IMG/VR virus record: IMGVR_UViG_3300042471_001823
Direction: 5' to 3' (one strand)
Length of the DNA stretch: 56,834 bases
Origin: an uncultured virus (IMG/VR IMGVR_UViG_3300042471_001823)
Lineage: Duplodnaviria > Heunggongvirae > Uroviricota > Caudoviricetes
The notes under the pieces were generated by a model. It made no database searches, had not been told where the DNA came from, and worked only from the letters and a program-made list of their open reading frames with translations. This document shows positions 17,428-45,938 of the stretch, piece after piece (the stretch's first letter is position 1; every line of letters begins with the position of its first letter). The position numbers and the translations under genes were made by a program.

Positions 17428-18298
17428 AAAGTTTACACTCTTATTATTTTCGCTTTCTTCCTTAAAAATGGGTACTTTTTCGTTAAAACCTAATTATCTT
17501 AACAATGGATTATTGGTTTATTTTAAGTGAATTTTTCTAGAAAAAGTTAGAAAACTTTCGGCTAAATCCCACATTCTTCCTTGAAATCCCCTTATACAGA
17601 TCTTAGTATTGATTTTTTTAATTTGGGTTTTCGATCTGAGGAGTGAACGCGACAACGCAAAAAAAATCTAGGCTTATGCACTTTGTTGAGGCTATGAACT
17701 TTGTCGAACAATTTGGATTAGTCCTAAGTTAAGAGCCTATGACTTTGGCTCACCCTAAAACCTAGACTTATGACTTTAAACTGCCTCGCAAGCGATCACC
17801 CTAAGTTTTAATTACTTGCCTTTAAAATCGCTTCTAACACCTTTGTTTTACCCCTAACCATCTCTTAGTACTTAAAAGTAATTTAAATGTCTTTAAGCGC
17901 TATTTTAAGGTAATAGAGCGTATATCCGTGTTTTTGATGCAAGTAGGTTTGTGGGTTAGTTTGATTGGCGCGGTGGCGATTCCGTGTATAAGCCAGTGGC
18001 AAAAACTGATTTACTGCCAAGCCTCAGACCCTAGGTTAAGCCCAAAATCCAAAGCCAAGTTTTACTAATGTCCAACCCTTAGCTTGAAAATCACAACTCA
18101 TCCCTCAGACTAAAAACCAAGTTAAAAAACTTGAATAAGATCTGTATAAGGGGATTTCAAGGAAGAATGCGGGATTTAACTAAAAATTTTCTAACTTTTT
18201 CTAGAAAAATGTGCTAAAATTTGATCAATTACCCATTGTTAAGATAATTAGGTTTTAACAAAAAAGCGCCCGTTTTTAAGGAAGAAAGTGAAAATAAT
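17428..18298. repeat. Dispersed inverted-arm non-coding element, copy A (minimal form; interior inverted relative to B and C)
   Basis: ~200 bp arms 17428-~17641 and ~18103-18298 are imperfect reverse complements; interior ~17781-17952 is the reverse complement of ~28714-28885 and ~45435-45605. Confidence 0.92.
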
Positions 18299-18364
18299 AT
18301 AAAATGTTGACGTAAAGAGGTTAGAGAGTACAATGTTTTGTGTATGTACAGTTAAGAAGGAAAT

Positions 18365-18631
18365 ATGGCTAAATCAAAAGTAAAACCAAAGGGTCAAGTA
18401 GAAGTAAAAAAGCGCGGTCGTCCTAAATTAGACGTGCCTCGAACGATGGCATGGAATTTTCGCTGTCCAATTTTTCTAAAGCGAATCATTGACAACGATT
18501 TGCCAAAAAGCGCTAGAACGCAATGGCTGATTATGGCGATTCACGAAAAGATTGAACGTGACGGAGGGGTTGTACCCACAGATGTGGTTGAGTTGGGTGT
18601 TGAGGTTGAACAGCAGAGTTTAGCTTCTTAA
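18365..18631 (+). CDS. Small DNA-binding protein (AT-hook plus ribbon-helix-helix-like)
   Basis: KKRGRPK, then beta strand (MAWNFRCP) and two helices; AAGGA RBS; promoter-like TTGACG..TACAAT at the end of element A. Confidence 0.6.
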   Translation: MAKSKVKPKGQVEVKKRGRPKLDVPRTMAWNFRCPIFLKRIIDNDLPKSARTQWLIMAIHEKIERDGGVVPTDVVELGVEVEQQSLAS

Positions 18632-18725
18632 CTAGCAACTAAGTCTGACTAGCAGCGGTCACGGCTTAACTAGCAACTAAGCTTGACTGACAAAGTTCAA
18701 CTTAACTAGCAACTAAGTTTGACTA
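18627..18725. repeat. Tandem array, 3 x 24-bp CTTAACTAGCAACTAAGyyTGACT with 12-14 bp linkers
   Basis: Read directly; lies between convergent stop codons. Confidence 0.8.
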
Positions 18726-18749
18726 ACAATGTTCACGACAAGGCTTAAC

Positions 18750-19241
18750 CTAACTAGCGAACTCAAGAAACGAAACCCCTTTAAGTTGATATGAATTAGC
18801 TCCTACATGGGTTAGGTACTGTCCCTGTTCAATCTTGATCATCACATTGAAGCTGTAGTAAGCCATTGTTAAGCCATTTAGTGTGACAGTCGAACTAGGT
18901 ACGATGGTTCTTGAGTGCCAACCCGCCTGATTCGTGAGGATTAATTCATTTTCATCTTGAAGGGTAAAGATTGTTGAGTCATTGCCAGTGTACAGACCCA
19001 TGTACCTTTCAAATAATGCCATGTCCGATTGGGTTAAAATCGCGTTGATTTGCCACTTGTAACATGGATAATAATTACGGTTTCCAGACTTGGCAATCCC
19101 ACCCAATGCATTGCGATCGCCAGCATTAGGGAAATCGGTTAGTTCCCTAATGCATAACTTTTCGTTCCCTAGGGTGTATTGAAAGACTAAAGGGGTAATA
19201 CCTTGGTAGCCTAGGATAATGCGACGTAATGGACAAGTCAT
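18750..19241 (-). CDS. Hypothetical protein, possibly tail (distal-tail-like)
   Basis: 163 aa beta-rich ORF; size and pattern only. Confidence 0.45.
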   Translation of the reverse strand: MTCPLRRIILGYQGITPLVFQYTLGNEKLCIRELTDFPNAGDRNALGGIAKSGNRNYYPCYKWQINAILTQSDMALFERYMGLYTGNDSTIFTLQDENELILTNQAGWHSRTIVPSSTVTLNGLTMAYYSFNVMIKIEQGQYLTHVGANSYQLKGVSFLEFAS

Positions 19242-19289
19242 GAGTGAATACCAAGTAAAAAATTATAGGACTCAAGGTGAAGGGTGTGG

Positions 19290-19542
19290 GGTTTAAGGTA
19301 AGAGCCATAAAGCCACAAACACAAAACCCAATGCATAAAGTTTAAAGCAAGAATCATAAGCCAATGCCATAAAATCTAAGGTAAGAGCCATAAAACTCAA
19401 ATTAAAACCCAATGCATAAAGTTTAAAGCAAGAGCCATAAAACTCAAATTAAAATTAAGGTCATAGGGTCTAAGGCAAGAGCCATAAAGCCCAAATTAAA
19501 ATTAAGGTCATAGGGTTTAAAGCAAGAGCCATAAAACTCAAG
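19290..19542. repeat. Degenerate ~47-bp tandem repeat (core AAGAGCCATAAA)
   Basis: gcaagagccataaaactcaaattaaaattaaggtcatagggtctaag-type units, five exact cores. Confidence 0.85.
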
Positions 19543-19815
19543 AAACAGAGGGTAAGCTACAATGCACCTGTTAACCTCATTATTAAGCTGGGTTCGCTAC
19601 ATCAATCCCAGCTTTTATTATTATTTTTTTTAAATGGCTATTATTATTTTTGAGTGACGGGTTATTATTATTTTTTGAGTGACTATACTGTTTTTTTGAG
19701 TGATTGTATTATTTTAGGGCAACAGTTATCAGTTTTAGATACTAATCATAGTTTGCAATAACAGCAATTGATGCCACTATCATAATAAATGACTGCAAGT
19801 TAACGGGTGGGAACA

Positions 19816-24848: not shown

Positions 24849-25419
24849 GTTGCCCTCTCCCATCCTTCAACTTGAATTTATACACCCACACCCAAGGGTT
24901 TGATTGCGCAATTTCTTTGCCGTGCAGGTGTTCAATTTCAGTAAAATAAGAACAAACAGGGTCAATTGTATTAAATTTTTGCTCTACATAATCAAAGTAA
25001 AGTCCGTTTTGTTCTTTAACCCCTTCCGCAATCGCAGATTCTTCACTGATGTCATTCAGCCGCTCTAGCCGAACATCGGTAATTTCAATCCAATAACGAG
25101 CAAAGGACTTCAACATGAAACGGGCGATCTGCTTGGAGTAAATGCCAGTTTTGCGGGATTCAATTTTAAGCTTGTCCGCTTCAGTAATCTGGTAATGAAT
25201 CTTGTTGGCTTTATGCCATTGATACTCTACCCATACGCTTAACTCATTAATGCGATGGTCAATAATCTGTGTCGGCTCTGCCAAATAACAGCAATCACCA
25301 ACATTATATCTAGGCTTGTCACTGCCATTAGATAGCCTACGTGTTTCAGTTTTCAACCCGTCAAGAATTGAGCAAAAATTGTCTTCAGTAAATCCGATTG
25401 GTGGGGTTTTAGTCGTCAT
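24832..25419 (-). CDS. ASCH/PUA-domain protein
   Basis: ILDGLKTETRR; IEITDVRLERLNDISEESAIAEG; NPWVWVYKF. Confidence 0.85.
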   Translation of the reverse strand: MTTKTPPIGFTEDNFCSILDGLKTETRRLSNGSDKPRYNVGDCCYLAEPTQIIDHRINELSVWVEYQWHKANKIHYQITEADKLKIESRKTGIYSKQIARFMLKSFARYWIEITDVRLERLNDISEESAIAEGVKEQNGLYFDYVEQKFNTIDPVCSYFTEIEHLHGKEIAQSNPWVWVYKFKLKDGRGQHVPNR

Positions 25420-25545
25420 AGCATTTCTCTAACCTTGTATTTGTGCTTGTTTCGATCATCAATATTGAATTTAATAAAATCGTTGGCAGCTTTTCTTGTA
25501 GGGAAGGGATCGTGATCTAGCCTACTAAAGCCGTTGATCCAAATT

Positions 25546-25926
25546 TCATATTGCCTTGGCGTTTTGATCATCATAATTACCGTTCCAGTGACTGTCAGAC
25601 TCTCCTACGTTTAAAGTTTGATAATAATCAAATTCTTTGCAAATTCCAGCCATGCCTTGTAATCCTTCCATCTTGGCAATTGCCAGCATGATTTCTGTTG
25701 CCTTTTCCCTGCCGACTTGGTCGTAAAGCACCCGCCCAAGCAGCCTATGAACGCCACAAAAATCATGGGCATTACAGCCCTCTGCATCCATATCGCAATA
25801 TTCCACAAGATTTTCAAGCGTTGCATGTGTTTCGTCAGGGTCAATAATTTGACCGTCAAGATATTTTGTGTCATCCCAGTAGGGATAATCATCACCATGA
25901 TGAAGAATTAGAGCTAATTGTGTCAT
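25546..25926 (-). CDS. Hypothetical protein
   Basis: ORF in minus-strand operon. Confidence 0.6.
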   Translation of the reverse strand: MTQLALILHHGDDYPYWDDTKYLDGQIIDPDETHATLENLVEYCDMDAEGCNAHDFCGVHRLLGRVLYDQVGREKATEIMLAIAKMEGLQGMAGICKEFDYYQTLNVGESDSHWNGNYDDQNAKAI

Positions 25927-26108
25927 CAGTTTAATCCATCATTTTTCTGAATCTTTCCATTTTGAGCGGCGAACCCTTTCACTTCTTTCAAAGCCTCCTC
26001 TTTTGTAAAGCCTGATTCAACCATCGCTTGTACGCATAGGCATTGTTCAGGGGAAAATTGCTTTAACTCTTTCCAAAATTCCACATCGGTCATTTGTTGG
26101 CTATCCAT
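25926..26108 (-). CDS. Small hypothetical protein
   Basis: ATG at 26108 with GGAG RBS. Confidence 0.55.
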   Translation of the reverse strand: MDSQQMTDVEFWKELKQFSPEQCLCVQAMVESGFTKEEALKEVKGFAAQNGKIQKNDGLN

Positions 26109-26112
26109 TTCG

Positions 26113-26373
26113 TTACTCCACAATGTTTTCAAATAAAGGCGCGTCAATTTCAACCACATCAACCTGTTTAGCCCCAAACACAAACTCTATCGTGTCATTG
26201 ACTGCTTGACACCATACTTTGTAAGGATGATTCTGCCTCAGTCCAAATGGATAGACCTTGTTTAATTCCCTTCTAAGCTGGGAACGATTCATTGACCCGT
26301 CCTGACAAGCTTGCCTATGTTGAGCAAGCACGGGACTAATCGCTTCATAGGCTTTTTCTTTCCACATTGGCAT
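26113..26373 (-). CDS. Conserved phage-type hypothetical protein
   Basis: YPFGLRQNHPYKVW motif. Confidence 0.65.
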   Translation of the reverse strand: MPMWKEKAYEAISPVLAQHRQACQDGSMNRSQLRRELNKVYPFGLRQNHPYKVWCQAVNDTIEFVFGAKQVDVVEIDAPLFENIVE

Positions 26374-26397
26374 TACCCCTTGATTTAATAGGTTTAT

Positions 26398-26865
26398 TTA
26401 CACCACACCGCCATGACTAGCCAGCAACACCTCAATCATCTCAACAGGAACATAGCCATAAATACGGTTTTTTTCGCTGTCTAGGTATTTACTAAACTTT
26501 AAAGGCAGAAGCTGGGAAGCCATGATTTCCATGCTGCGATAAGCGTAAACATTGAAATGCTTCCCTCTAGGTTCAGAATAAGCATCATCATCGCCTTGTA
26601 CAGATAGCCAAAAACCATCAGCGCAGACCAAGCGCTTATTGTTAGGTTCACCAAATTGGATTTTTTCAAGGTTAGGCAATTTCATTTTGGTTCCTTGTAC
26701 ACGTTTACATTCTTTAGCCCTGACATGATGACCCAATGGCTCTAAAAGCCAAAGTTCGTCACCACTACCATAACAACTAGCGGCACAATACAACGAGGCT
26801 TCATCTGTAATTTCAGTGCATTCGTAAATAACTCCTTCATATAAAACAGGAAATGGAACAAACAT
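26398..26865 (-). CDS. Hypothetical phage protein
   Basis: LVCADGFWLSVQ...YSEPR...YGYVPVE...HGG C-terminal domain; GAGG RBS. Confidence 0.65.
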   Translation of the reverse strand: MFVPFPVLYEGVIYECTEITDEASLYCAASCYGSGDELWLLEPLGHHVRAKECKRVQGTKMKLPNLEKIQFGEPNNKRLVCADGFWLSVQGDDDAYSEPRGKHFNVYAYRSMEIMASQLLPLKFSKYLDSEKNRIYGYVPVEMIEVLLASHGGVV

Positions 26866-26906
26866 AATTCACACCTCAATCTATTCCAACATTTTCAACA
26901 AACCTG

Positions 26907-27263
26907 TTATTCCATAGCGGTCAATAAATCGGCAATACCTAATAGCTCTGGGGCATCAACAAATCGCATATAAGTTACTTGATCCCGCATCCCAAAAGGC
27001 AAGGAAACTTCAATCCCACACCTGTGACACTCTATGACAAGAGCGCTTAGAGAGGGGCAAAAAATACCGGTGGTCAACTGAAAGTCTAATGGCAATAAAA
27101 TTGCTGATTCCGACCGCCATCCTGCCATCTTGTGGCAATTCTCCCAGTTATACAAACCGCCAAAAACTACGCCCATAATGAAAGCCACTTTTTTCGCTAA
27201 CGGCGATAGTGGATAATCAACATGGCTTTGTAACCATTCAGCGCCTGCGTATTTAGTTGTCAT
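26907..27263 (-). CDS. Hypothetical protein
   Basis: First gene downstream of minus-strand promoter at 27299-27327. Confidence 0.6.
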   Translation of the reverse strand: MTTKYAGAEWLQSHVDYPLSPLAKKVAFIMGVVFGGLYNWENCHKMAGWRSESAILLPLDFQLTTGIFCPSLSALVIECHRCGIEVSLPFGMRDQVTYMRFVDAPELLGIADLLTAME

Positions 27264-27298
27264 AACACATTAACCTTTAATAAAAAACAACCATCATT

Positions 27299-27327
27299 AA
27301 TGTATAATACAATTAATCATCTGTCAA
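27299..27327 (-). promoter_or_regulatory. Sigma70-type promoter
   Basis: TTGACA-17 bp-TACATT on minus strand. Confidence 0.7.
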
Positions 27328-27365
27328 CACACAAAATACTAGCAACTGCTTAACCCACAATAATA

Positions 27366-27716: not shown

Positions 27717-27847
27717 CCCCACTTCATTCCTTAGAAATTGTTTCCATCAAACATCTGACTCGCAAAAGCACCTAATGTCTTAGGTGCTTTTTAAATGAGC
27801 CAATTTAACTGTGTGACGTTTGGTTTTAGTTTTATGTCGGTTAATCT

Positions 27848-27938: not shown

Positions 27939-27941
27939 CTC

Positions 27942-29216
27942 AAAGTTTACACTCTTATTATTTTCGTTTTCTTCCTTGAAAATAGGCACTTTTTCGTTAA
28001 AACCTAATTATCTTAACAATAGATATTTGACTGTTTTTTAAGTGAATTTTTCTAGAAAAAGTTAGAGAACTTTTAGCTAAATCCCACATTCTTCCTTGAA
28101 ATCCCCTTATACAGATCTTATTCAAGTTTTAAGCTTGGTTTTTAATCTGAGGGGTGGGATGCCTGTTTTTTTGAAAACTCAGGTGAAAGAAGTTGACATC
28201 AAGTCGAAAAACTACAATTGGCAACCTTAGCCCTAGGCGATCCAAAAAAACCGAGGTTGGCATTTTTTTTGACTGATATGCAATTAGTTGCACAAACCCT
28301 AGTGATAACTCAGTTCATGACATGTAGTTAATCGCCTCGATTTCTTGGATAAATTTCATTTTCTTCCTTGAGTTGGTGGTTTGAGTTGCTAAAAAGCAGG
28401 GTGAAAAATACATGGCAAGAATCAAAGATTTTTAGCTAGTTTTCTTGGAACTTTTAGCTAAATTCCACATTCTTCCTCAGATCTCCCTTATACAGATCTT
28501 ATTCAAATTTTTAACTTGGTTTTTTAATCTGAGGGATGAGCCGCGATTTTCAAGCTAAGGGTTAAGTGATGGTAAAACTTGGTTTTGGATTTTGGGCTTA
28601 ACTCAAGGTTTAAGGTTTGGTAGTAAATTTGCCATTGCCTTGCAAATCCCAGCCTTAAGCAAAGATTTTCTCATCGGTTTACAAACATCGCTCTTAATCT
28701 GTCAACTTTCCACAAACCCACTTGCATCAAAAACACGGATATGCGCTCTATTGCCCTAAAACCAGCGCTTAAAGACGTTTAATTTGACTCCAAGTACTAA
28801 GAGATGGTTAAGGGTAAAACAAGGGTGTTAGAAGCGATTTTAAAGGCAAGTGATCGAAACCTAGGGTGATCACTTGTAAAGCAGGCTAAAATCATAAGCC
28901 TAGGTTTTAAGGTGAGTTAAAATCACGGACTCTTAGACTGGAACCAAGCCAAGTTATCCAACAAAGTGCATGAGCCTAGTTTTTTTTGCGCCGTCACCTC
29001 ACATCCTCAGTCCCAAAAACCAAGTTTAAAAACTTGAATAAGATCTGTATAAGGGAGATCTGAGGAAGAATGTGGGATTTAGCTAAAAGTTTTCTAACTT
29101 TTTCTAGAAAAATTCATTTAAAATAAACCGATAAGCCATTGTTAAGAAAGTTAGGTTTTAACGAAAAAGTACCCATTTTTGAAGAAGAAAGTGAAAATAA
29201 TAAGAGTATAAACTTT
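27942..29216. repeat. Dispersed inverted-arm non-coding element, copy B
   Basis: Starts AAAGTTTACACTCTTATTATTTTC, ends GAAAATAATAAGAGTATAAACTTT; CCCTTATACAGATCTTA cores at 28104+, 28485+, 29040-. Confidence 0.92.
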
Positions 29217-29235
29217 GGCTAGCAAGCTTTTTGTG

Positions 29236-31700: not shown

Positions 31701-31715
31701 AACAATTTACACACC

Positions 31716-35687: not shown

Positions 35688-35696
35688 CAGCTTGTT

Positions 35697-36296
35697 TTAC
35701 TTCCCTTTCTTGGTTTCAGCCTTAGCCAGTTGCTCGGCAGCAACTTCTGTAGCTGAATTGTGGCGGTTTGCAGTGACTTGACGGTATTCAGAAAGTACTA
35801 ATCCTAATACTGCGGGTTTTGGTGAAATCGGAGTGATATTCCCCTGATAAGCCATGTGAATACCTTGCACTTGCATGGTTAGGGATGCAATTTCTCTAGG
35901 GTTTTTGGCACGTAAAGCGGCTTCAGCCCTTGGAATAATCGCCTTAAGCATATCGTCATAAACACAGGTGCGATTTTGCCGAAAACACTTAGATTCTTTG
36001 TTTTCAGTGATTTCTTTTTGGGCAAAGACTGCTACCTGAAATGCATAATTACTGACTGCAACATTGTTGGCATCTTGCAAAGCCGTAAGCATTGCGTTGT
36101 CAATTTCACTGGTTGGAATCTTTTGCCCATTAAGCACAGCGGTTCCATAAGCTGAGAGCGTGGGATTTTCAGGCGGGTTGATTGTGTGCTCTTTTGGGGC
36201 ATTGCTCATTAACGCCCCAATGCCAACAGCGGATACAGTAACCAACCCTACCAACCCAGCACCTAACAGCCCTAGCTTGTTAAGGTTGGTTGGCAT
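35697..36296 (-). CDS. Single-pass membrane protein
   Basis: ATG at 36296 (MPTNLNKLGLLGAGLVGLVTVSAVGIGAL) just after upstream stop; GGAG RBS. Confidence 0.65.
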   Translation of the reverse strand: MPTNLNKLGLLGAGLVGLVTVSAVGIGALMSNAPKEHTINPPENPTLSAYGTAVLNGQKIPTSEIDNAMLTALQDANNVAVSNYAFQVAVFAQKEITENKESKCFRQNRTCVYDDMLKAIIPRAEAALRAKNPREIASLTMQVQGIHMAYQGNITPISPKPAVLGLVLSEYRQVTANRHNSATEVAAEQLAKAETKKGK

Positions 36297-36298
36297 AA

Positions 36299-36661
36299 TT
36301 ACTCTTGCTCTTGGCTTGCTGACAGGGACAATAGCGCCGCTAGATCGGGGATCTCGACCTCGAACCCCGCGCTTTGGCGAAAATTTGCAAGGGATTCCCC
36401 CACGTTTGACCATACTTGGTTAGCGCCAGCGGCAATTTCTAGGGTGGTGTTCATACTAACAAGCTGGTTGAACATCGCAGCGTTTTGCTTGGCAATAACC
36501 GATGCTTGGCTTTGCATTTGTTCGATTGCTTGCAGTTGTGCCGCTTGTGCCTGTGATGCGACGGTGGCAAGCTGGCTGCCTGCGTCTACGGTTTGTTGCT
36601 TAGGCTTGTTGGACTTGGGATTGGTATTGTCCAAATCTTCTAACTTAATTTTGTCAGCCAT
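36299..36661 (-). CDS. Gln/Ala-rich helical protein
   Basis: ORF with GAGG RBS. Confidence 0.65.
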   Translation of the reverse strand: MADKIKLEDLDNTNPKSNKPKQQTVDAGSQLATVASQAQAAQLQAIEQMQSQASVIAKQNAAMFNQLVSMNTTLEIAAGANQVWSNVGESLANFRQSAGFEVEIPDLAALLSLSASQEQE

Positions 36662-36724
36662 GATGTTGCCTCATTAATGATTTTTTTGTGTTTGACGATA
36701 GCTAATAGCAGTTGTGTTTGACGA

Positions 36725-37057
36725 TTAAGAAGCAATTGCTTCAACAATTTCGCAGGGGATTCCTTTCTTTTCCAGTACTAATTCCACAAATACAGGGGGA
36801 TAAAACGGCAATCTACCAACCTTAACTGGTTCGTACCGTTTTTTCTGCTCGGTGGTGAAATTACCAGATCTAATCGCCTCTCTTGTTTCGGCAACTAAGT
36901 CTCTTACATAAGAGTCGCTAAAGCCTCGAATCTTTTTAAAAGCGTCTCTTGGATTTGTGTGAAACTTTTGCAGTGCCTCTCCAAAATAATAACCTCGAAT
37001 TGCTTCAGCAATCATTGGGACGGTCATAGACTCCCTGATCTTTACTTTTTTGTCCAT
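36725..37057 (-). CDS. Basic hypothetical protein, possible operon regulator
   Basis: First gene after promoter and hairpin; GAGG RBS. Confidence 0.6.
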   Translation of the reverse strand: MDKKVKIRESMTVPMIAEAIRGYYFGEALQKFHTNPRDAFKKIRGFSDSYVRDLVAETREAIRSGNFTTEQKKRYEPVKVGRLPFYPPVFVELVLEKKGIPCEIVEAIAS

Positions 37058-37080
37058 ACAGCCTCATTCTGTTAACCTTC

Positions 37081-37169
37081 AAGCGCTTCTGTGGCGCTTC
37101 ACTTTTTTTTGAAGCGCCACAGAAGCGCTTCACTGTTACAACAATATAGCTAAACTATTTATCTGTCAA
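37081..37169 (-). promoter_or_regulatory. Sigma70 promoter followed by perfect 21-bp inverted repeat
   Basis: TTGACA-17-TATTGT (37169-37141); aagcgcttctgtggcgcttca-N8-tgaagcgccacagaagcgctt (37081-37130). Confidence 0.75.
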
Positions 37170-37270
37170 GCTTTTTCTTATAGGTCAATACAAAAGATAT
37201 AATCAATTGATATATCGTTTATTTTTCTTGTATTGAACGTTCTTTTAATGATTAATTCTCACGGGTCACC

Positions 37271-37843
37271 ATGCACACTAATTCCCCATTAATAATTCAC
37301 TATTACGCATCTGACTTCAAAACGGTTAATGGCATAGTGGCAATAGGTCAGGTTTCGGCATACCATCACGGGTTATTCATGATGTTGCTATCCAAGGTCA
37401 CGAATACCTTTGAGTCGATCAACAAAGTGTATATAGCTGAGATTGCTAAAATGTTGCCAGACTTGCTGACTGGTAAAAAAGGGATTGACCTGACTAGGAT
37501 TAATGATGCTGACTTGTACCGTCTATTTGTGGGAAGTGAGAGCCTATTGATGGAATTGCACAAACCACAGCACATAGACCAGATTGAAAGAGATAGTGAA
37601 ACCGCGCCGTTTCCTGTGACTAGTGAACCGATGGCAGACATGTTGGCTAATCTAACCGCTGCTACCGAAAGTGTGAGTGATGCCCAATGGTTAATCAAAA
37701 ACTGTTCAGTAAATTTTCTGAATGCGTTTAGTTGTATATTTTCTGAGATTCACCGTGACCCACAGGAAAGGATGGACGAGTATCGCCTTAATGCCTATAA
37801 GACGCAATTCCCTGAAAATTCTATGATTGCGCTGGGGATGTAG
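37271..37843 (+). CDS. Hypothetical protein
   Basis: 190 aa ORF followed by terminator. Confidence 0.6.
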   Translation: MHTNSPLIIHYYASDFKTVNGIVAIGQVSAYHHGLFMMLLSKVTNTFESINKVYIAEIAKMLPDLLTGKKGIDLTRINDADLYRLFVGSESLLMELHKPQHIDQIERDSETAPFPVTSEPMADMLANLTAATESVSDAQWLIKNCSVNFLNAFSCIFSEIHRDPQERMDEYRLNAYKTQFPENSMIALGM

Positions 37844-37859
37844 GGTTGGGTAATTGCCA

Positions 37860-37904
37860 ACACAAAAAAGCACCTGAGTTTTAGTTCTCAGGTGCTTTTT
37901 TGTG
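37860..37904. terminator. Bidirectional terminator
   Basis: aaaaaagcacctgag-loop-ctcaggtgctttttt. Confidence 0.8.
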
Positions 37905-37914
37905 TTGGGTCTCT

Positions 37915-38181
37915 TTAGTTGATCTGTTCGTAACGACTAATATGTTGTTCGTAATGGGTCAAAGCTTTGACAAAGCCTGTAATATCAACAAGCTTGGCAG
38001 CTATAATATTTGGTGCTGGCTTTTCTCCTAATACTGCTAAGGTTAACGATTCATCTTGTATTACCAATGTTGACGCATTTTCTTTTCCTGTGTTGTCCAT
38101 CCGAACAAATTGATGTTGTGGTTCTATTTGTCCATCATCGTGCTGTAGCACCAAAAGTCTTAAATAAAATTTCTGTGCCAT
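37915..38181 (-). CDS. Hypothetical protein
   Basis: ORF with GAGG RBS. Confidence 0.6.
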   Translation of the reverse strand: MAQKFYLRLLVLQHDDGQIEPQHQFVRMDNTGKENASTLVIQDESLTLAVLGEKPAPNIIAAKLVDITGFVKALTHYEQHISRYEQIN

Positions 38182-38231
38182 AACTGCATTAACCTCATTA
38201 ACAATACCGTCAATACAATAATAACAGGTAT

Positions 38232-38444
38232 CTAAGCGGTTAGCAATCCCACATTATACTTTTGCCTTAACCTATCAGCATGAGCAATCAACTGGTCTTC
38301 TGTGGGAATAGGTGACACAATGCTTACATTGCCATACCAGTCCTCATCGCGATAATGCCAATAATACTTTCTGTAGTAGCGTTGCACCATGATGTGATTA
38401 GGTGCTTTTAGCCAACTCTTATAAAACGGGTAGATCTTAGGCAT
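38232..38444 (-). CDS. Hypothetical protein
   Basis: ATG (MPKIYPF) preferred start. Confidence 0.5.
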   Translation of the reverse strand: MPKIYPFYKSWLKAPNHIMVQRYYRKYYWHYRDEDWYGNVSIVSPIPTEDQLIAHADRLRQKYNVGLLTA

Positions 38445-38618
38445 GGTTAACTCTCTTTTGGTTGAAAATTTTATAACTGTCGGCTTCAAGGGTATTGACC
38501 TTGTGACTATCGACTTTAAGGTTATTAGCTTTAAAATTATTAACTTTTGGGGTAGTCAACAATTCTAAAATAATAATAGCCAAAAGTTCAACTTTTGGCT
38601 ATAGACAACAATTAAACT

Positions 38619-39209
38619 TTAGACTCTAGCAATCGTTACGCTTTCTGGTTGATTCTGATATTTGCCATTACGATCGGCATAAGTTACATCGCATGGCTCA
38701 CCTTCAAAAAACAGCAGTTGCACTACGCCCTCATTGGCATAAATGCGACAATCAGCACCGGATGAGTTGGAAAATTCGAGGGTGAGATTTCCAACCCACA
38801 TCGGCTCAGCAGGCGACAAATTAGCAATAATCCCAGTTCTGGCATAAGTGCTTTTACCAATACAAATCACAGTGATATTGCTTGGCACTTCCAACCGCTC
38901 TACAGCCACCCCTAAGCCGTAACTATGAGCCGGTAAAACAAAGTATTGTTCATTCGTATCATTGTCAATACATAATCTAGCACGCTCTAGATTCTCAGGG
39001 TTAAACCGCTTAGGATCAATCACCGTTCCAGGGATGTGGCGAAAGATGCGAAAGTCTTTCGGTGACAATCGAATATCATAGCCATAGGACGATAAGCCAT
39101 AGCTGATGCGCTTGCCAGCAAAGGACTCCCGAATCAAAGTTGGCACAAATGGCGAAATCATATTGTGATTTTCTGCCATATCTCGAATCCAGTTATCTGG
39201 CTTAAGCAT
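38619..39209 (-). CDS. dcd: dCTP deaminase
   Basis: ISYGLSSYGYDIRL, GKSTYARTG, LTLEFSN, IYANEG, YADRNGKYQNQ. Confidence 0.95.
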   Translation of the reverse strand: MLKPDNWIRDMAENHNMISPFVPTLIRESFAGKRISYGLSSYGYDIRLSPKDFRIFRHIPGTVIDPKRFNPENLERARLCIDNDTNEQYFVLPAHSYGLGVAVERLEVPSNITVICIGKSTYARTGIIANLSPAEPMWVGNLTLEFSNSSGADCRIYANEGVVQLLFFEGEPCDVTYADRNGKYQNQPESVTIARV

Positions 39210-39275
39210 TGGGTTAACCTCTAAAAAATAAAACTGATGATAGTGGGAATAAACCCCGTAAAGAAACAGTTAAAA

Positions 39276-39713
39276 CTAAAACTCATACTGATGAAACAAC
39301 GTATTCCGATTATACGTGTAAGTACAATCCTTGACAACAATGCTTTTATCGCTAGATGAAATATCCCCCTTGATCACAATCGTGGTTTCATTGGACTCAA
39401 TGACTTCACCCTCAACGTCAAAAACCGCAAACATTTCGTGCTTGGCTACAGTTTTATTGCCAAGATTAACTTGACCTTCTTTGTTTGGGGCTTCAGTACC
39501 ATCGAGGGACACTGTAACTTTCCACAAGGCGAATGGAATAAGGATACCTGTGTCAGTCTTAAAGCCTTTGCCTTGAGTCATGGACTTGATCAGCAGTCCC
39601 GAAATATGGCAAGTCAGGGCAACTTGTTGCGGTGCGGTAGGTGTGGCAATAACAGCGGTAGTAGCGCTGTCACTATTGAGGGGTTTTCTGTTTCCTGATG
39701 GAAGTCTAGCCAT
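39276..39713 (-). CDS. Hypothetical protein
   Basis: ORF coupled to upstream gene. Confidence 0.6.
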   Translation of the reverse strand: MARLPSGNRKPLNSDSATTAVIATPTAPQQVALTCHISGLLIKSMTQGKGFKTDTGILIPFALWKVTVSLDGTEAPNKEGQVNLGNKTVAKHEMFAVFDVEGEVIESNETTIVIKGDISSSDKSIVVKDCTYTYNRNTLFHQYEF

Positions 39714-40017
39714 TTTTTAACACCTCACTCATTTCTAATAGTTGTAACTGCAAAAACAATTTCCGAAAAATTTGGAACTTTTCGCATTCAAACCATGAAA
39801 ACACGAAATTTTGTACAGCACCACTAGGGGTAACCACAACAACCCCTAGGCTATTCCCTAGGTCTTGCATCTCTACAAGCCATCCTTGTCTATATGGCAT
39901 GACAGCCATAGGATAACCGTCATCGGATAATCTGATGGCTTCTGCATCACAAGCAAAGTTGTGGTATAGGAGTTTTGTGTAGAAGTCATGAATTAAACTT
40001 TTTCTGGTCATTAGCAT
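39706..40017 (-). CDS. Hypothetical protein
   Basis: ORF downstream of minus-strand TTGACA (40063-40068). Confidence 0.6.
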   Translation of the reverse strand: MLMTRKSLIHDFYTKLLYHNFACDAEAIRLSDDGYPMAVMPYRQGWLVEMQDLGNSLGVVVVTPSGAVQNFVFSWFECEKFQIFRKLFLQLQLLEMSEVLKNG

Positions 40018-40147
40018 TTACTATAAATGAATACTTAATAAATACCAAAAATAACTGTTATTTGTCAATACCGAAAATAGTTTGATTTAGGTATTGACAA
40101 ATAATCGATTGATTGGGAAAATAAAAGTATTGATTGAGGTGCATGTA

Positions 40148-40582
40148 TTGAACGTATCTAACGAAAAGTCGGCTCCCGTGCTTGAAATCCATAAAGTTGC
40201 TGCTAAGTGGTGGGCGGATTGGCTAAGAGGTAAAAAGAAGCCGTTCAATTCGGCTGGATTAGAAGGATCACACGCTTTGATCGCTGAAGCTTTGATGGGT
40301 CAAAATGCAGATCAATTTGAATCAACACAAATTAATTTGTTTGAAGAAGTTTTGGCTCAAAAAATTGCTGAAATGGATTTACAAGATAAACCCTATCCTG
40401 TTATTGTTTCGGTGGATTATCATCCTGATGACACGCTTACTTTTGCTGCTAAAAAAGCAGGGTTAAATGTGTGGCTTGGAGAGTTCCCATTTAAAACTAG
40501 TTTGTGGATTGAAGGTGGCACGATCAAAGCGCGTGTTGGTTATAGTAGCGAAAGCAAACAAATTTATCCAGAATTAAATTGA
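40148..40582 (+). CDS. Conserved phage-type hypothetical protein
   Basis: AAKWWADWL...VDYHPD..L..AA...FPFKT; the track start (40094) is the -35 box, so TTG at 40148 after GAGG is preferred. Confidence 0.65.
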   Translation: MNVSNEKSAPVLEIHKVAAKWWADWLRGKKKPFNSAGLEGSHALIAEALMGQNADQFESTQINLFEEVLAQKIAEMDLQDKPYPVIVSVDYHPDDTLTFAAKKAGLNVWLGEFPFKTSLWIEGGTIKARVGYSSESKQIYPELN

Positions 40583-40656
40583 TTTTATTTCTACCCAACA
40601 AAAAAGACCTTGATCAGAAAAATCAAGGTCTTTTTTGTTGCTGAAATTAATTGAAG

Positions 40657-41034
40657 TTATGCACTCACCCCCGCATTGACATACAAGGTATTCAGATTAG
40701 TATTAACCGTGTACCCTTTATCTAATGGCGTAGCAGTAGACGGATAAACAAACGGTGCAGCATTGGCAGTAGACAACGAAGTAGGATCATAAGTTGTAGC
40801 GCCATTGGCACTGAACTCAGCAGATGTGACCTTACAGCGGTAGTTGATTGCTGCCACCTCTGGAGTTAAGGCAACCGCTTGGATAAGCCGTAATTGACCG
40901 TTGACGGTTGCGTAAATGTGAACCAAGAATCTACCATTGCTGCTGTCCTCAAACAGTTTAGCCGTCAAATCCGACATGGTTCGAGTAGTAGTGGTTGATG
41001 CTTTTGGCTGTTGAAATACTGTAGAAATTGCCAT
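40657..41034 (-). CDS. Small Thr/Ala-rich putative structural protein
   Basis: Composition; follows 262-aa structural-like gene. Confidence 0.5.
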   Translation of the reverse strand: MAISTVFQQPKASTTTTRTMSDLTAKLFEDSSNGRFLVHIYATVNGQLRLIQAVALTPEVAAINYRCKVTSAEFSANGATTYDPTSLSTANAAPFVYPSTATPLDKGYTVNTNLNTLYVNAGVSA

Positions 41035-41072
41035 TGATTTATGTTATTTCCTAGGGTTGGTATTTGACAAAA

Positions 41073-41861
41073 TTAGCACTTAACAATCTGACCAGTCCAA
41101 ACCATGTCATAAGGTAAGCATTGGCTGCCATCGTAGGCTACTGCATAGGTGGTGTTGACCTGATCACTGCCAAATGTAACTTGAGAACCATCTAACACAA
41201 ACTGACCAGCATTGGCTTGTAGGCGCATGACATAGTTACTAGAGTCAATAAAAGTCAACACGATACCAACTTGACCCACATCGGTACTAGACAGCTTGCG
41301 TACACCATCTAAAGTTTGGGGCACACGCCATGACTTCTGGTAACCCGTTAAGTTATCAGAAAATTTCATCGCGCCGTTAGCACCTTGGGCAAAGGAATCA
41401 TCAGTAGCTGGGTTAAACGTCGCATAAGGTTGGCGGGTCAATGCGATTGTGTGACCATCGGGACCAAACGCTGAGGCAATCGCATTGGGATTGTCAGCAG
41501 CTAATCCATAACCATCAACCCCAGCCTCAGCACCAGTCACACTGTCAACTAAAACGCGGTTGCGTCCATAAAAAGTAGCCACGCCATCAACATCAGCAAA
41601 AATGCGTCCCAACAGAATTTCAATAATTTCTTGGCTTAACCCTGGAAATGACATCTTGATCTTTGGCATTTCTTCGGTGACTTGCCGGAATGTCTCAACC
41701 ATTACACCCGTTTGAGACGATGCAGTTCTTACTAATTCTTTCAATCCGGTGTCAAGTTCGATTGATTTTGGCGTTTCCACTACCCGCAAAATACTGTTAT
41801 GGTACAACAATAAATTGGTAGGCAGTGGTTTAAGCAAACGACTAGCAATTGTCTTTCCCAT
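41073..41861 (-). CDS. Putative major tail tube-like protein
   Basis: 262 aa Gly/Ala/Thr/Asp-rich beta protein; size and pattern only. Confidence 0.45.
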   Translation of the reverse strand: MGKTIASRLLKPLPTNLLLYHNSILRVVETPKSIELDTGLKELVRTASSQTGVMVETFRQVTEEMPKIKMSFPGLSQEIIEILLGRIFADVDGVATFYGRNRVLVDSVTGAEAGVDGYGLAADNPNAIASAFGPDGHTIALTRQPYATFNPATDDSFAQGANGAMKFSDNLTGYQKSWRVPQTLDGVRKLSSTDVGQVGIVLTFIDSSNYVMRLQANAGQFVLDGSQVTFGSDQVNTTYAVAYDGSQCLPYDMVWTGQIVKC

Positions 41862-41909
41862 TCCCCTATTCCCCTAAATCCGATATTATCAATCTAGCAT
41901 ACTACCACG

Positions 41910-42461
41910 TTATTTGTTTGGCTTTTGCTTGATTGGCTGAGGCGGGTTTAATGCGTTTATAGACATATTCAAAGCCCAATGAATAATCTCGGTATGATTA
42001 AAAGCTAAACAAGCGCTTTTCCATGAAAGATCGGAACCCGACACTTGCATCCATACCGCTTCGGTCGTTTCGGTTGTATCAGGTTTTAAATTTGGTAGTG
42101 CATCAACGGTGCAATGAACAACAAATCTTAGTGATACCGTTTCATTCTCCGCAGGATTGGGATCGCTGATTACTGCGTCAGGCTGTGGGTTTACCCCAAA
42201 ACAATAATCAGACAATTTGATCCCTAACTCTTCAAACACTTCACGCTCAACCGCTTCTGATGCTGACTCACCCCAATCAAGAAAACCGCAAGGGATACCA
42301 AAAAAGTTAGGGTAAAGATTCATGGTTGACGATCGCCTGCCTAATGGTACATAAGTCAATCCGTTGCAGTGAAACAATGGAATAGCCACTACTGCGATAC
42401 TGCGAGAAATCCAATATTGGTTTCCATCATTGGCTTCAATCACAAAATTTGGTTTATGCAT
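41910..42461 (-). CDS. Nudix hydrolase
   Basis: Nudix box GFLDWGESASEAVEREVFEELGI; LAFNH. Confidence 0.92.
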   Translation of the reverse strand: MHKPNFVIEANDGNQYWISRSIAVVAIPLFHCNGLTYVPLGRRSSTMNLYPNFFGIPCGFLDWGESASEAVEREVFEELGIKLSDYCFGVNPQPDAVISDPNPAENETVSLRFVVHCTVDALPNLKPDTTETTEAVWMQVSGSDLSWKSACLAFNHTEIIHWALNMSINALNPPQPIKQKPNK

Positions 42462-42609
42462 ATAGTTATTATTTTTCTTGATTTACGATAATGAATCAAT
42501 AATTCTGCGTTATAATTAGTTTAACAGGGTAATTCCTCCTGTGAAATTAATTATACAGACCCGCCTGCGCTATTAGGCGGGTCTGTTGTTTGATGCGTAT
42601 TAAGTGTAA

Positions 42610-42960
42610 TTAGGTTGTCGCGTCACAGTTTTTAGGCATTCTCTCAACACGCCACCCATTAGGATCTAAAACAGCGTATTGTTCCTGTGTAATCAACTGG
42701 TATCCGTTTTCAATTGGTTGCAAGCATCCTAATTTCATCAGTCCGTTTGCAAATGTTATCAAATCATTTTCGTGGGCAATGGGCACGGTTAATTCTGGGT
42801 GTTCATAGATTGCCCCAAACTCTAAAGCAATAAACGAATTGTCAAACCGTGAATAAAACAGCGTCTTGCCATCCTCAATGTCAATGGAATAGCCTTCATC
42901 GGTTTGCTTTACAATTTCATGGGCAATGCAGTGATCAAGAAAAGTTTTGGTTAGGGACAT
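42610..42960 (-). CDS. Hypothetical protein
   Basis: ORF with downstream hairpin near 42555-42586. Confidence 0.6.
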   Translation of the reverse strand: MSLTKTFLDHCIAHEIVKQTDEGYSIDIEDGKTLFYSRFDNSFIALEFGAIYEHPELTVPIAHENDLITFANGLMKLGCLQPIENGYQLITQEQYAVLDPNGWRVERMPKNCDATT

Positions 42961-43140
42961 GGTGAAGTTAGGGGGATAAACTTTACTTATAATACATTAA
43001 TTAATTGATACGGGATAGTGATTGATTGGTAGTGATTTATGTATTGACAAATAATAATAATCAATCTATTGTTGTCTTATGGTTAACAAAAAAACAAAAA
43101 AGGTTGATCAAAATTATCAAGTTAGCGGAGCTAAAAAAAT

Positions 43141-43422
43141 ATGTCTGTTGAACGCACTTCTATAGAAGATTCCCTTCATGTTGATATAGAATTAAAAGAA
43201 TCAGGAGATGACTGGCTGTGTGGTGCGCAGATTGCAACACATCTTTTGACAGGAGCTACTTTTGTAGAAATTACGCTTGCCCGTCACCTTCAATTTGACA
43301 AGCAAACACAAAGTTTTAATGAGGAATTTATTTCTAAGCTTGAATTCTTGTCTGCCGATGGAAAAATCTTCTTTGTTGAAACGAAAAATGACACTCTTGT
43401 GGTAGGCGATATACCAATATAA
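43141..43422 (+). CDS. Small acidic hypothetical protein (cassette)
   Basis: TTGACA-17-TATTGT at 43044, GGAG RBS, terminator near 43434-43478. Confidence 0.7.
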   Translation: MSVERTSIEDSLHVDIELKESGDDWLCGAQIATHLLTGATFVEITLARHLQFDKQTQSFNEEFISKLEFLSADGKIFFVETKNDTLVVGDIPI

Positions 43423-43554
43423 TTTTTTTAGCAACACAAAAAAACGGTAGTACGAATTTACTACCGTTTTTTTGTGTTGATCGGCAATGATTTATATATT
43501 GACAAATAATAATAATTGGCTTATTGTATTGTTAAATTAACAGGATCAAAAGAA

Positions 43555-43773
43555 ATGGCTGTTGAACCTAATGATTACAAGCGTTTGGCGATTGCAACAT
43601 ACGCTAAATGCGTAAAAAATTTGTTGGAAATATCCACATTCATTGGAATTGATTTCAATAATGAATGTGGACACATTGTACGGCTTAAATTTAAAAAGCC
43701 CGACGGTGAAGAGTTTGTTATTGAAGCGCAAAATCATGATGGTTTTGACTTCCCTTTTCTTGTAATGAAATAA
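43555..43773 (+). CDS. Small hypothetical protein (cassette)
   Basis: TTGACA-17-TATTGT at 43499; ATG at 43555; terminator near 43784-43834. Confidence 0.65.
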   Translation: MAVEPNDYKRLAIATYAKCVKNLLEISTFIGIDFNNECGHIVRLKFKKPDGEEFVIEAQNHDGFDFPFLVMK

Positions 43774-43864
43774 CGGATTTTTGACACAACAAAAAAACGG
43801 TGGTAAATTTGTGCCACCGTTTTTTTTGTTGTGTGCATACACCCCTAGAAAAAGAGCAACCTAC

Positions 43865-44395
43865 TCAAATAGCCATTGCTCTCAACTTATTCACAACCAT
43901 CGCCGCTGGCACGCGCTGAGAAGCAAATGTTACAGGCTTGGACACCCCTAACTGTTCACGGTAGAACCACGCCTTTTTGTTGTGGTATGAGTAACGATCT
44001 GTTAAAAAATTACCAACATCAGGGTAGTCAGCGTTATTCATTGGCTTTACCAACCCATTGGCTTGATTTGCTAACAACTGATGCCCCTGAATCGCCACTG
44101 CCATCGCATCTTCATAGTGTGAGACATCAGGACTAAACAAAAGCGTGGATTTGTCCAAGTTAGCAATCGGTGCATCAGGGGTAATGCCCATTGTATGGAT
44201 AGCCAACTCGCTGTATCCATCAATCGAACCAGACACACTTTGGTAGTCTTCTCCCAAAAACGGATGGATTGCAATAAAATTCCCTCTCAGCAAAAAATGC
44301 AAAAGACGCAATTGCTCGCCAAATACAAAGGTGTTAATCAGCAGTTGATTGTACTCACGAATCAAATCAAAGTCGTCCATCTTTTCGCCTCTCAC
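43865..44395 (-). CDS. dps: Dps/ferritin-like protein
   Basis: LHFLLRGNFIAIHPFLGEDY....IDGYSE matches Dps H..H..D..E ferroxidase pattern; C-terminal HNKKAWF. Confidence 0.75.
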   Translation of the reverse strand: MRGEKMDDFDLIREYNQLLINTFVFGEQLRLLHFLLRGNFIAIHPFLGEDYQSVSGSIDGYSELAIHTMGITPDAPIANLDKSTLLFSPDVSHYEDAMAVAIQGHQLLANQANGLVKPMNNADYPDVGNFLTDRYSYHNKKAWFYREQLGVSKPVTFASQRVPAAMVVNKLRAMAI

Positions 44396-44438
44396 TATAT
44401 TTTCATCCGTCAGTATATCAGACCCGCTTTTGTTGGTT

Positions 44439-45938
44439 AAAGTTTACACTCTTATTATTTTCACTTTCTTCTCTAAAAATGGGTGCTTTTTCGTTAAAAA
44501 CTAATCATCTTAACAATGGGTTGTCAGTTTATTTTAAGCGCATTTTTCTAGAAAAAATTAGAGAACTTTCAGCTAAATCCCACATTCTTCTTCAGATCTC
44601 CCTTATACAGATCTTATTCAAGTTTGAAAACTTGGTTTTAGTCTGAGATGTGGGTTGCCTGTTTTTTGAAACCTAGGTCAAGGGAGTTGGCATCAAGTCG
44701 AAAAACTACGGTTAAAATTTTGGCTTATATGCAATTAGTTGCAGCTATGGCTTAATTTTCGGTATGCAACTAATTGCACAAACCCTAGTAATAACTCAGT
44801 TCATGACATGCGGTTAATTGCCTCAATTTCTTAGATAAATTTCACTTCCTTCCTTGAGTTGGTGGTTTGAGTCACTAAAAAGCAGAGTGAAAAATATATG
44901 ACAAGAATCAAGGATTTTTAGCTAGTTTTCTTGGAACTTTTAGCTAAATCCCACATTCTTCCTCGGATCTCCCTTATACAGATCTTATTCAAGTTTTTAA
45001 CTTGGTTTTCAATCTGAGGCATGAGCCTTGGTTTTTTGATTTTGACTTGGGATTAAAATTTGAGGAGCTGGCAAAATCCAAAAGCGGTAATCTTGGCTTA
45101 TATGCAATTAGTTGTATACCCTAAACATGCAATCCAAGTTTAAAATATGCAACTAATTGCATACCCTAGGTTTAAATTACATGCTTTAAGTTTAGATAAA
45201 TTTCGTTTTCTTCCTCATATTCCCCTTATACAGATCTTAGTATTGATTTTTTAACTTGGTTTTTTAATCTGAGGGATGAGCCGTGATTTTCAAGCTAAGG
45301 GTTGGACATTAGTAAAACTTGATTTTAGATTTTGGGCTTAACCTAGGGTTTGGCTTTAACCACTGGCTTGCAAACCCCATCCTTAAGCATGGCTCACAAA
45401 CATCGCTTTAAGTAGAAACTTCCTACCAACTTACAAACCCACTTGCATCAAAAACACGGATATACGCTCTATTACCCTAAAACCGGCGCTTAAAGACGTT
45501 TAATTTACTTCTAAGTACTAAGAGATGGTTAAGAGTAAAATAGGGGCATTAGAAACGATTTTAAAGGCAAGTGATTAAAGTCTGGGGCGATCACTTGTAA
45601 GGTAGTCCAAAGTCATAAGCCTAGGTTTTAAAGCAAGTCAAAATTAAAGCAAGTCAAAATTAGAGGCATCGGTTTTAAGCCTGAGCTAAGTTAATCAACA
45701 AGGTGCATAAGCCTAGTTTTTGTTCCATTGCGTCCGCACCTCAGTCCAAAAAAAAACCAAGTTTAAAAACTTGAATAAGATCTGTATAAGGGGGATTTGA
45801 AGAAGAATGTGGGATTTGGCTGAAAGTTTTCTAACTTTTTCCAGAAAAATTCACTTAAAATCAACTGATAATCCATTGTTAAGATAATTAGTTTTTAACG
45901 AAAAAGCACCCATTTTTGAGGAAGAAAGTGAAAATAAT
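44439..45938. repeat. Dispersed inverted-arm non-coding element, copy C (longest)
   Basis: Collinear with B; cores at 44600+, 44971+, 45223+, 45776-; four TGCAA-N4-TTG(C/T)A palindromes. Confidence 0.92.

Follow-up and report, generated by a model that had tools for sequence, protein, structure and literature searches.

We analyzed a stretch of 56,834 nucleotides from the uncultured virus IMGVR_UViG_3300042471_001823 (IMG/VR), hereafter designated as the window, which looks like a part of the genome of an uncultured tailed phage. The subject of this study is a set of three large non-coding repeat elements dispersed in the window, namely A (17428..18299, 872 nt), B (27942..29217, 1276 nt), and C (44439..45939, 1501 nt). 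They total 3,649 nt and thereby account for 6.4% of the window; of the non-coding DNA in the window, their share is 35%. We scanned 60 open reading frames (ORFs) against Pfam and 60 against PHROGs, and rescanned 17 ORFs against Pfam with E-values up to 1. These scans yielded matches to a sliding clamp, two helicases, a dCTP deaminase, a NUDIX hydrolase, a C5 DNA methylase, an RnlB-type antitoxin, an M23 peptidase, and the large terminase; the majority of the ORFs in the window matched no family in the two databases. Neither tRNA nor tmRNA was found in the window. The region comprising positions 25000-33000 was present in 24 public runs from 21 studies, labelled as lake-water or freshwater metagenomes.

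A first-pass annotation of the same DNA had described the three elements as gene-free and bounded by inverted arms. This description was borne out, as no ORF of at least 60 amino acids (aa) lies wholly inside A, B, or C and the arms span approximately 200-215 nt. The only ORFs overlapping the edges of the elements are those at 17156-17530, 17250-17465, and 29158-29349, and no reading frame is open throughout all three copies.

Organization of the three elements

A, B, and C share a common plan, in which an arm is followed by one to three core units, an interior of approximately 480 nt termed M, and the opposite arm. Element A is composed of an arm, one core, M in inverted orientation, a core, and an arm. 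Element B comprises an arm, core 1, an insert of approximately 380 nt (D12 plus D4), core 2, M, and an arm, and element C follows the plan of B with an extra segment of approximately 250 nt that bears a third core. The second core of B is located 381 nt inside the left arm, and C possesses both this second core and the third one. The reverse complement of A corresponds to B minus the stretch between cores 1 and 2 (roughly 28120-28500). The cores within an element are spaced by 252-553 nt, and Tandem Repeats Finder did not report an array of cores.

M occupies 17625..18115 on the minus strand in A, opposite to the orientation in B (28520..29010, plus strand) and C (45260..45750, plus strand). 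Conserved blocks of M alternate with non-aligning stretches, the mean column identity being 82%. The first-pass annotation had recognized a shared internal module but sized it at approximately 170 bp, which is too small for M, and M is inverted in A. Module D4, found in B (28277..28523, plus strand) and C (44763..45009, plus strand) but not in A, is 92% identical between the two elements and contains core 2 together with the palindrome TGCAATTAGTTGCA and a TTCTTCCT motif. We also noticed in D4 a micro-ORF of 17 codons, MQL(V/I)AQTLVITQFMTC(S/G), at 28277-28330 in B and 44763-44816 in C, as well as at approximately 677-730 of L019, a related metagenomic contig described below. Three of the five differences between the B and C versions are synonymous; as the micro-ORF overlaps the palindrome TGCAAYTARTTGCA, this pattern may be due to chance.

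The left arms of A (17428..17645), B (27942..28160), and C (44439..44652) are on the plus strand and all bear the full terminus, AAAGTTTACACTCTTATTATTTTC in the case of A. On the minus strand, the right arm of B (29000..29217) has the full terminus with one mismatch in the outer 14 nt, and the right arms of A (18095..18299, ending in ...GAAAATAATA) and C (45738..45939) bear a short terminus that is devoid of the outer 14 nt and stops at the same base in both. The arms of A are complementary over 176 nt at 86% and those of C over 187 nt at 91%, while the complementarity in B is divided into two stretches of 108 nt at 87% and 110 nt at 78%. The six arms in the window and one from L019 have lengths of approximately 205-220 nt when aligned and were alignable over approximately 200 columns, with pairwise identities of 82-92%. 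From the outermost position inwards, an arm consists of a terminus made up of AAAGTTTACACTCT and then TATTATTTTC, a TTCTTCCT motif, a GTTAA...TTAAC dyad, a perfect 14-bp palindrome TTTTTCTAGAAAAA, and the core of approximately 85 nt. At the inner end of each arm lies a composite site made of a second TTCTTCYT, 7 nt, and an invariant 17-mer, followed in the core by a short AT-rich hairpin and TCTGAGG. The interiors of B and C carry one or two extra composite sites, all in one direction.

In five flanks, namely A left, B left, C left, B right, and L019, the full terminus begins at the identical base. Few parts of the arms are as well conserved as the outer 24 nt. The genes flanking different elements are not paralogues of one another. 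The identical ends in five flanks, together with the non-paralogous flanking genes, point to the insertion of discrete units rather than segmental duplication. Both A and C have the short terminus on their genomic right side, though the interiors of the two elements face opposite ways. The simplest account of this placement would be that an interior was flipped by recombination between arms.

Conservation of the 17-mer and motifs confined to the elements

The 17-mer CCCTTATACAGATCTTA was found in nine exact copies in the window, all of which are within the three elements. A has one copy in the left arm (17589..17605, plus strand) and one in the right arm (18136..18152, minus strand). Those of B are in the left arm (28104..28120, plus strand), the internal core (28485..28501, plus strand), and the right arm (29039..29055, minus strand). 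C possesses four copies, in the left arm (44600..44616, plus strand), the internal core (44971..44987, plus strand), the second internal core (45223..45239, plus strand), and the right arm (45776..45792, minus strand). The nine invariant copies reported in the first-pass annotation were all recovered at the positions given there, except that the copy placed at 29040 starts in reality at 29039. Allowing up to two mismatches added no further match in the window, and none of 100 shuffled sequences gave any match. Pieces of the 17-mer of at least 10 nt were not found in the window outside the elements. The 17-mer is asymmetric, with the 6-bp AGATCT as its sole palindrome; TTTTTCTAGAAAAA and TGCAAYTARTTGCA lie elsewhere in the element.

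Aligning the copies confirmed the core unit of approximately 85 nt that had been proposed from the sequence. The alignment has 85 columns, of which 46 show no variation, and at most 17 of these are consecutive. When the columns were shuffled, such a run appeared in 21 of 100,000 trials for the nine copies in the window, and in 17 of 100,000 for eleven copies including the two of L019. The invariant run of 17 nt is bordered by two or three alleles on either side. The presence of differing alleles beside the 17-mer implies that simple homogenization between copies is not the explanation for its invariance. We regard the 17-mer as moderately special and as selectively conserved beyond its surroundings, judging from the aligned copies.

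Other motifs are also confined, entirely or largely, to the elements. TTCTTCYT starts exactly 15 nt ahead of the start of the 17-mer at every 17-mer, and only two occurrences of this motif were found in the window outside the elements. TTTTTCYRGAAAAA occurs six times inside the elements (one per arm) and never outside, and five of the six matches to TGCAAYTARTTGCA in the window are within B and C.

Relatives, copy number, and stability of the loci

The exact 17-mer was detected at only six loci in 185,579 species genomes, all of which appeared to be single and unrelated chance hits. Among 13 loci in a metagenome collection, the only true relative was L019, a contig of 1,070 nt bearing a B-like element with 88% identity over 659 nt. 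In IMG/VR, three element motifs, among them the exact 17-mer without any match, yielded 0, 2 (chance), and 0 loci. Element B had no blastn match in the GenBank phages or in plasmids, and no copy outside the lineage was seen in these searches. Likewise, neither megablast of 46561-56834 nor tblastn of the terminase found a match in the GenBank phages, and no relative of the helicase was found in IMG/VR.

The element in L019 begins at the same base as A, B, and C, but its left neighbor differs, being a gene for an HU-like protein. The sole close relative of this protein is a metagenomic protein of 94 aa, and its relatives in IMG/VR (L022-L024) are 37-40% identical. Another contig, assembled from the run X1 (see below), contains a variable stretch resembling that of L019, which suggests that L019 probably corresponds to one more copy within this phage lineage. 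Judging from these sequences, L019 probably does not represent a spread of the element to an unrelated genome.

Contigs of four runs from four studies were aligned to 27000-46900, and 15 joints were listed from these short contigs. X1 may be the source sample of the window and X3 is from another study. The independent assembly of X1 reproduced four arm-flank junctions and three interior pieces with no difference, and contigs of X3 cross the arm-flank junctions right of B and right of C. In no case among the 15 listed joints was an entire element skipped. The first-pass annotation called for a check of the copy number, which yielded three elements in the window but also an indication of one more. 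A 17,026-nt contig of X1 starts at 45888 in the right arm of C and extends approximately 6 kb past the end of the window, covering approximately 56.8-62.9 kb of the molecule there; in this contig, a further 74 nt correspond to 44442-44515 in the outer left arm of C. As no further arm exists in the window beyond those of A, B, and C, this match suggests that a fourth copy should lie just past the right end of the window, within approximately 6 kb.

Signals of transcription and RNA structure

One explanation of the elements is that they are non-coding RNA genes, in which the arms or M would be transcribed and the core would serve as a promoter or terminator. On the plus strand of B and C, the consensus fold of M amounts to -81.4 kcal/mol, compared to -61.5 on the other strand, and both folds are below those of column-shuffled alignments (-81.4 vs -37.6 +/- 3.6). 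In addition, six base pairs of M changed on both sides, and one compensatory pair was found in the outward strand of the arms. However, the folds of single M sequences were ordinary against dinucleotide shuffles on either strand (z = -1.37 and -1.44), and we set aside the stability of the consensus fold for this reason. The z-scores of the arm folds range from -1.62 to +0.77. The covariation in M is not significant either, as 3.7 +/- 1.4 pairs are expected and 49 of 500 shuffles reach six. Mismatches between left and right arms showed no strand bias for G-U pairs (11/7, 8/9, and 9/7). Rfam 15 gave no match in the window at the gathering score; with E-values up to 1, B had none and C had four at the chance level (His_leader twice and two microRNA models). 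No family of RNA polymerase was matched by the scanned ORFs, and sigma-70-like sites in the elements are not above chance.

Two promoter hypotheses were dropped. The elements are unlikely to be sets of sigma-70 promoters, as their sigma-70-like sites do not exceed those of shuffled sequences. Read as its reverse complement, the 17-mer terminates in TATAAGGG, a sequence that may resemble the initiation region of promoters for single-subunit phage RNA polymerases. A general promoter of this type was rejected because no piece of at least 10 nt occurs outside the elements and no RNA polymerase was matched. Strong promoters of the form TTGACA-N16-18-TACAAT are located just outside the right ends of A (18307) and B (29236).

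Comparison with replication origins and dispersed viral repeats

The first-pass annotation had brought forward the likeness of the 17-mer to the DnaA box as a support for a replication origin. In the window, DnaA boxes with up to one mismatch are rarer than expected by chance (59 vs 77 +/- 9), and the only perfect box, at 43887, is outside the elements; a DnaA-dependent origin was rejected. Base composition gave no better ground for an origin. The GC content of the elements (34.7%) is close to that of the other intergenic DNA (34.3%), so that the elements are not more AT-rich, and the GC skew, the inspection of which had also been advised, simply tracks gene direction along the window. Tandem direct repeats of the iteron type (approximately 17-22 bp) were not found inside A, B, or C. 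On the other hand, a 19-nt tandem array of 7.4 copies, iteron-like in appearance, lies just right of C (46160-46300). This array sits between a minus-strand ORF of 48 aa (46015-46161) and a gene for a 415-aa protein of unknown function, which is followed by a RecD/Dda-like helicase gene. A terminator hairpin at 45940-45972, adjoining C, belongs to the 48-aa ORF. The region of the array (context 45940-49349) looks like a classical origin layout.

The homologous regions (hrs) of baculoviruses, to which the elements had been likened, are tandem arrays of three to eight units of approximately 64 bp with a 24-bp imperfect palindrome, according to the available portion of PMC4535591. As in the baculoviruses, several non-coding repeat regions are dispersed in a viral genome, a short conserved site is reiterated, and a protein-bound origin or enhancer is the proposed role (PMC4535591, in the same portion). 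In contrast to the hrs as described there, the units in the window are 250-550 nt apart instead of in tandem, the 17-mer is not palindromic, and inverted arms of approximately 215 nt bound a unique interior of approximately 480 nt; besides, no counterpart of the binding protein IE1 is known here (PMC4535591). As the dispersal of the regions was found but neither tandem units of approximately 60-70 bp nor a palindromic core of approximately 24-30 bp, the membership of the elements in the hr type was rejected. By analogy, the elements could work like the baculovirus hrs without being hrs.

In T4-type phages, the promoter/stem-loop cassettes termed PeSLs are short motifs consisting of a promoter plus a terminator, as far as the available portions of PMC2839356 and PMC4122927 describe them. 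The elements resemble PeSLs in being repeated intergenic cassettes of a phage at the borders of gene modules and possible substrates for recombination, but they are 10-30 times larger and bear no promoter above chance (PMC2839356, PMC4122927, in the same portions).

Neighboring repeats and genes

Separate PeSL-like cassettes, which combine near-consensus sigma-70 promoters (TTGACA, 16-18 nt, TACAAT) with hairpin terminators, were found in the window as the repeated pairs 50006-50062/51025-51081, 43022-43079/43477-43534, and 43425-43473/43778-43826, as well as at 18307-18334 and 29236-29265. Other intergenic tandem arrays are at 18627-18736, 19361-19541, 19616-19715, and 27872-27938, with periods of 36-38, 47, 45, and 29 nt, respectively. 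The array with the 29-nt period directly adjoins B on the left; of the others, two are within approximately 1.3 kb of A.

A gene for a protein with an RnlB/Dmd-type antitoxin domain and a gene for a C5 cytosine methylase lie immediately right of B (29600-31308), and the pair is likely an anti-defence module. The minus-strand gene at 43865-44395, which adjoins the left end of C, encodes a ferritin/Dps-like product, matching a PHROG annotated as 'DNA binding protein' (E of 5e-10) and weakly the Pfam family Ferritin (E of 0.011). A -35-like hexamer of this gene spans the junction at the left arm of C. Further away, the gene for a 702-aa protein of unknown function (7666-9774) contains three in-frame repeats of approximately 98 nt (8359-8783).

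GCGATCGC, which we take to be the HIP1 palindrome typical of cyanobacteria, occurs nine times in the window (17254, 19113, 23995, 30950, 32550, 52173, 53322, 55334, and 56702) against 0.35 expected, and none of these sites is inside A, B, or C. One protein encoded in the window contains HEAT/PBS-lyase repeats. The enrichment of GCGATCGC and the HEAT/PBS-lyase protein make a cyanobacterial host plausible, and it is on these hints that the label of cyanophage rests.

Origin and possible function of the elements

We tentatively propose, at somewhat less than even confidence, that the elements are discrete fold-back repeats of mobile origin that are retained today as modules acting at the DNA level, on which a sequence-specific protein would dock at sites paired head-to-head. 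Their ends are sharp and identical in different flanks, which suggests that the units entered as discrete pieces, probably into intergenic sites and long ago. Since then, the phage may have retained them for the docking of at least one sequence-specific DNA-binding protein. Owing to the inversion of the arms, two composite sites face each other head to head at a distance of 0.5-1.1 kb, and a bound protein could pair these sites and loop out the interior between them. The likeliest use would be in the DNA transactions of the phage, namely the initiation or enhancement of replication or recombination. The elements are old yet intact: the identity between copies does not surpass 92%, but none of the six arms or nine sites is broken. 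The completeness of old copies, their intact sites, and the stability of the loci in the populations of other lakes are unlike what would be expected of dead transposon copies. The reiterated protein-binding platforms envisaged in the first-pass annotation fit the conserved 17-mer, its fixed 15-nt offset from TTCTTCYT, the confined motifs, the palindromes of the elements, and the recurrent junctions, whereas the supports that the annotation had given for an origin in particular failed.

Several observations weigh against this proposal. No candidate for the binding protein was picked out, most of the neighboring proteins having no family match in Pfam or PHROGs, and no distant relatives, in which the conservation of the 17-mer could be assessed, were found among the GenBank phages, IMG/VR, and plasmids. 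Within the lineage, one of the two 17-mers of L019 bears a 2-nt insertion, implying that the 17-mer is not absolutely fixed. For the seven arms by themselves, 561 of 20,000 shuffles reach a run of this length, which makes it only modestly unusual. The iteron-like array beside C is a more conventional candidate for an origin. Finally, the sharp termini and inverted arms are explained just as well by a transposon with its partner outside the window.

In such a scenario, the elements would be non-autonomous transposons, that is, internally deleted derivatives with complex ends of approximately 215 bp. Their transposase would be encoded by the host or by another part of the phage genome and would bind to the composite sites and termini. 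The arms can then be regarded as terminal inverted repeats, the outermost 24 nt of which are well conserved and start at the same base in five flanks. Each arm has a sub-terminal motif in direct repeat, the copies differ by internal deletion or duplication with one interior in the other orientation, and every copy is intergenic with unrelated flanking genes. The ends of Tn7, Mu, and transposons of the Tc1/Sleeping Beauty type with inverted repeat/direct repeat (IR/DR) ends are approximately 200 bp long, contain several sub-terminal binding sites, and generate duplications of 2-5 bp. The elements resemble these transposons in the length of the ends, in having a motif that is direct within an end and inverted between ends, and in having unequal numbers of sites on the two sides. 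In contrast, the inner and outer sites of Tn7, Mu, and IR/DR ends are alike but the 17-mer is unlike the terminus, and neither duplication nor transposase was seen for the elements. The MITEs (miniature transposable elements with inverted repeats) of prokaryotes are described in the available portion of PMC11602168 as being 50-800 bp long with inverted repeats of at least 10-15 bp and duplications of 2-10 bp. The same portion of PMC11602168 notes that cyanobacteria are rich in MITEs and that MITEs are known in viruses. The elements are similar to MITEs in being non-coding, intergenic, present in several sharp-ended copies with terminal inverted repeats, and devoid of an internal transposase (PMC11602168, in part). 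On the other hand, the repeats of approximately 215 nt and the elements of 872-1501 nt differ from the MITE values of 10-15 bp (minimum) and 50-800 bp, respectively, with both B and C exceeding the range quoted for prokaryotic MITEs, and a duplication of 2-10 bp, a partner element, a copy in a host, and a polymorphism of insertion were not found in the searches made (PMC11602168, in part).

The absence of target-site duplication claimed in the first-pass annotation was upheld when the seven ends were compared with boundary shifts of 0-3 nt. The longest match was 4 nt (AAAA or AACC), with 2 nt within B and 0 within C, and no two ends, whether of one element or of different ones, shared a duplication of at least 5 nt. 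The absence of a transposase in the window was likewise upheld, since the scanned ORFs matched no transposase or recombinase in Pfam or PHROGs; there is no transposase within the elements, and no autonomous partner with the same ends was found in the window. Copies outside this phage lineage were found neither by the exact-motif scans of genome, viral, and metagenome collections nor by blastn of B against phages and plasmids, and none of the joints listed for the four runs corresponds to an empty site. With a maximum of 92%, near-identical copies are lacking, the integrity of all nine sites is unexpected for dead copies, and the outer 14 nt are missing from two of the six ends. The first-pass annotation had set aside a MITE, and the duplication, transposase, and exact-motif searches for host copies were indeed all negative. 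Nevertheless, the base-identical termini in five flanks keep a MITE a strong rival, and we regard a transposon derivative as unlikely but deserving serious consideration.

The remaining explanations received less credence from us. It is unlikely, though conceivable, that the elements constitute the phage counterpart of the hr system, with dispersed fold-back modules, paired protein sites, and multiple sites that initiate or enhance replication or recombination throughout the genome of a large phage, probably a cyanophage. Slightly more doubtful is the view that they are old repeats without function, in which recombination or gene conversion keeps the copies alike and the invariant 17-mer is a by-product. 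The mosaic interior with high-identity blocks beside non-aligning stretches, the star-like relationships of the arms without left or right clades, and the short terminus on the right in A and C, pointing to inter-arm recombination, are consistent with this view. However, gene conversion homogenizes tracts and would not leave a single run of 17 nt invariant between varying alleles, and the repeats occupy as much as 6.4% of the window despite the compactness of phage genomes. Non-coding RNA genes are improbable given the ordinary folds and covariation described above. We consider an invertible DNA switch, in which recombination between the arms flips the interior and alters the expression of neighboring genes, to be very improbable. 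The inversion of the interior in A relative to B and C with the short terminus on the unchanged genomic side can be explained by a switch, and the arms are long enough for homologous recombination, but the scanned ORFs gave no recombinase match and the interior has no promoter-like site above chance. The joints between opposite strands turned out to be contigs of copy A placed on B and C, or to be too short for interpretation, and no single locus was seen in both orientations in the contigs of the four runs. It is hardly credible that the elements are an artefact of assembly with collapsed or mis-joined repeats. Short-read contigs do break inside the arms, so that no single contig links an interior to its flanks, yet the arms differ by 9-18% and are hence distinguishable, and four junctions and three interior pieces were recovered without a difference in the independent assembly of X1, as were two junctions in the contigs of X3.

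Kilobase-sized fold-back repeats of this plan were not found described for phages in the open-access literature searched. The elements belong among dispersed non-coding repeats, their anatomy is unusual, and to date they have been seen in a single uncultured lineage. The retention of several non-coding units of kilobase size is unusual in compact phage genomes. In either of the two leading readings, that is, docking modules or transposon derivatives, the composite site with the 17-mer offers a concrete probe for pull-down. If the elements are transposon derivatives, they would represent an unusually large and duplication-free class inside a phage and a possible marker by which phage and host could be connected. 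Should they serve as docking platforms for replication or recombination, as we tentatively propose, they would represent a novel type of cis-acting element for genome handling in phages, and through them the initiation of DNA synthesis in large freshwater phages could be approached.

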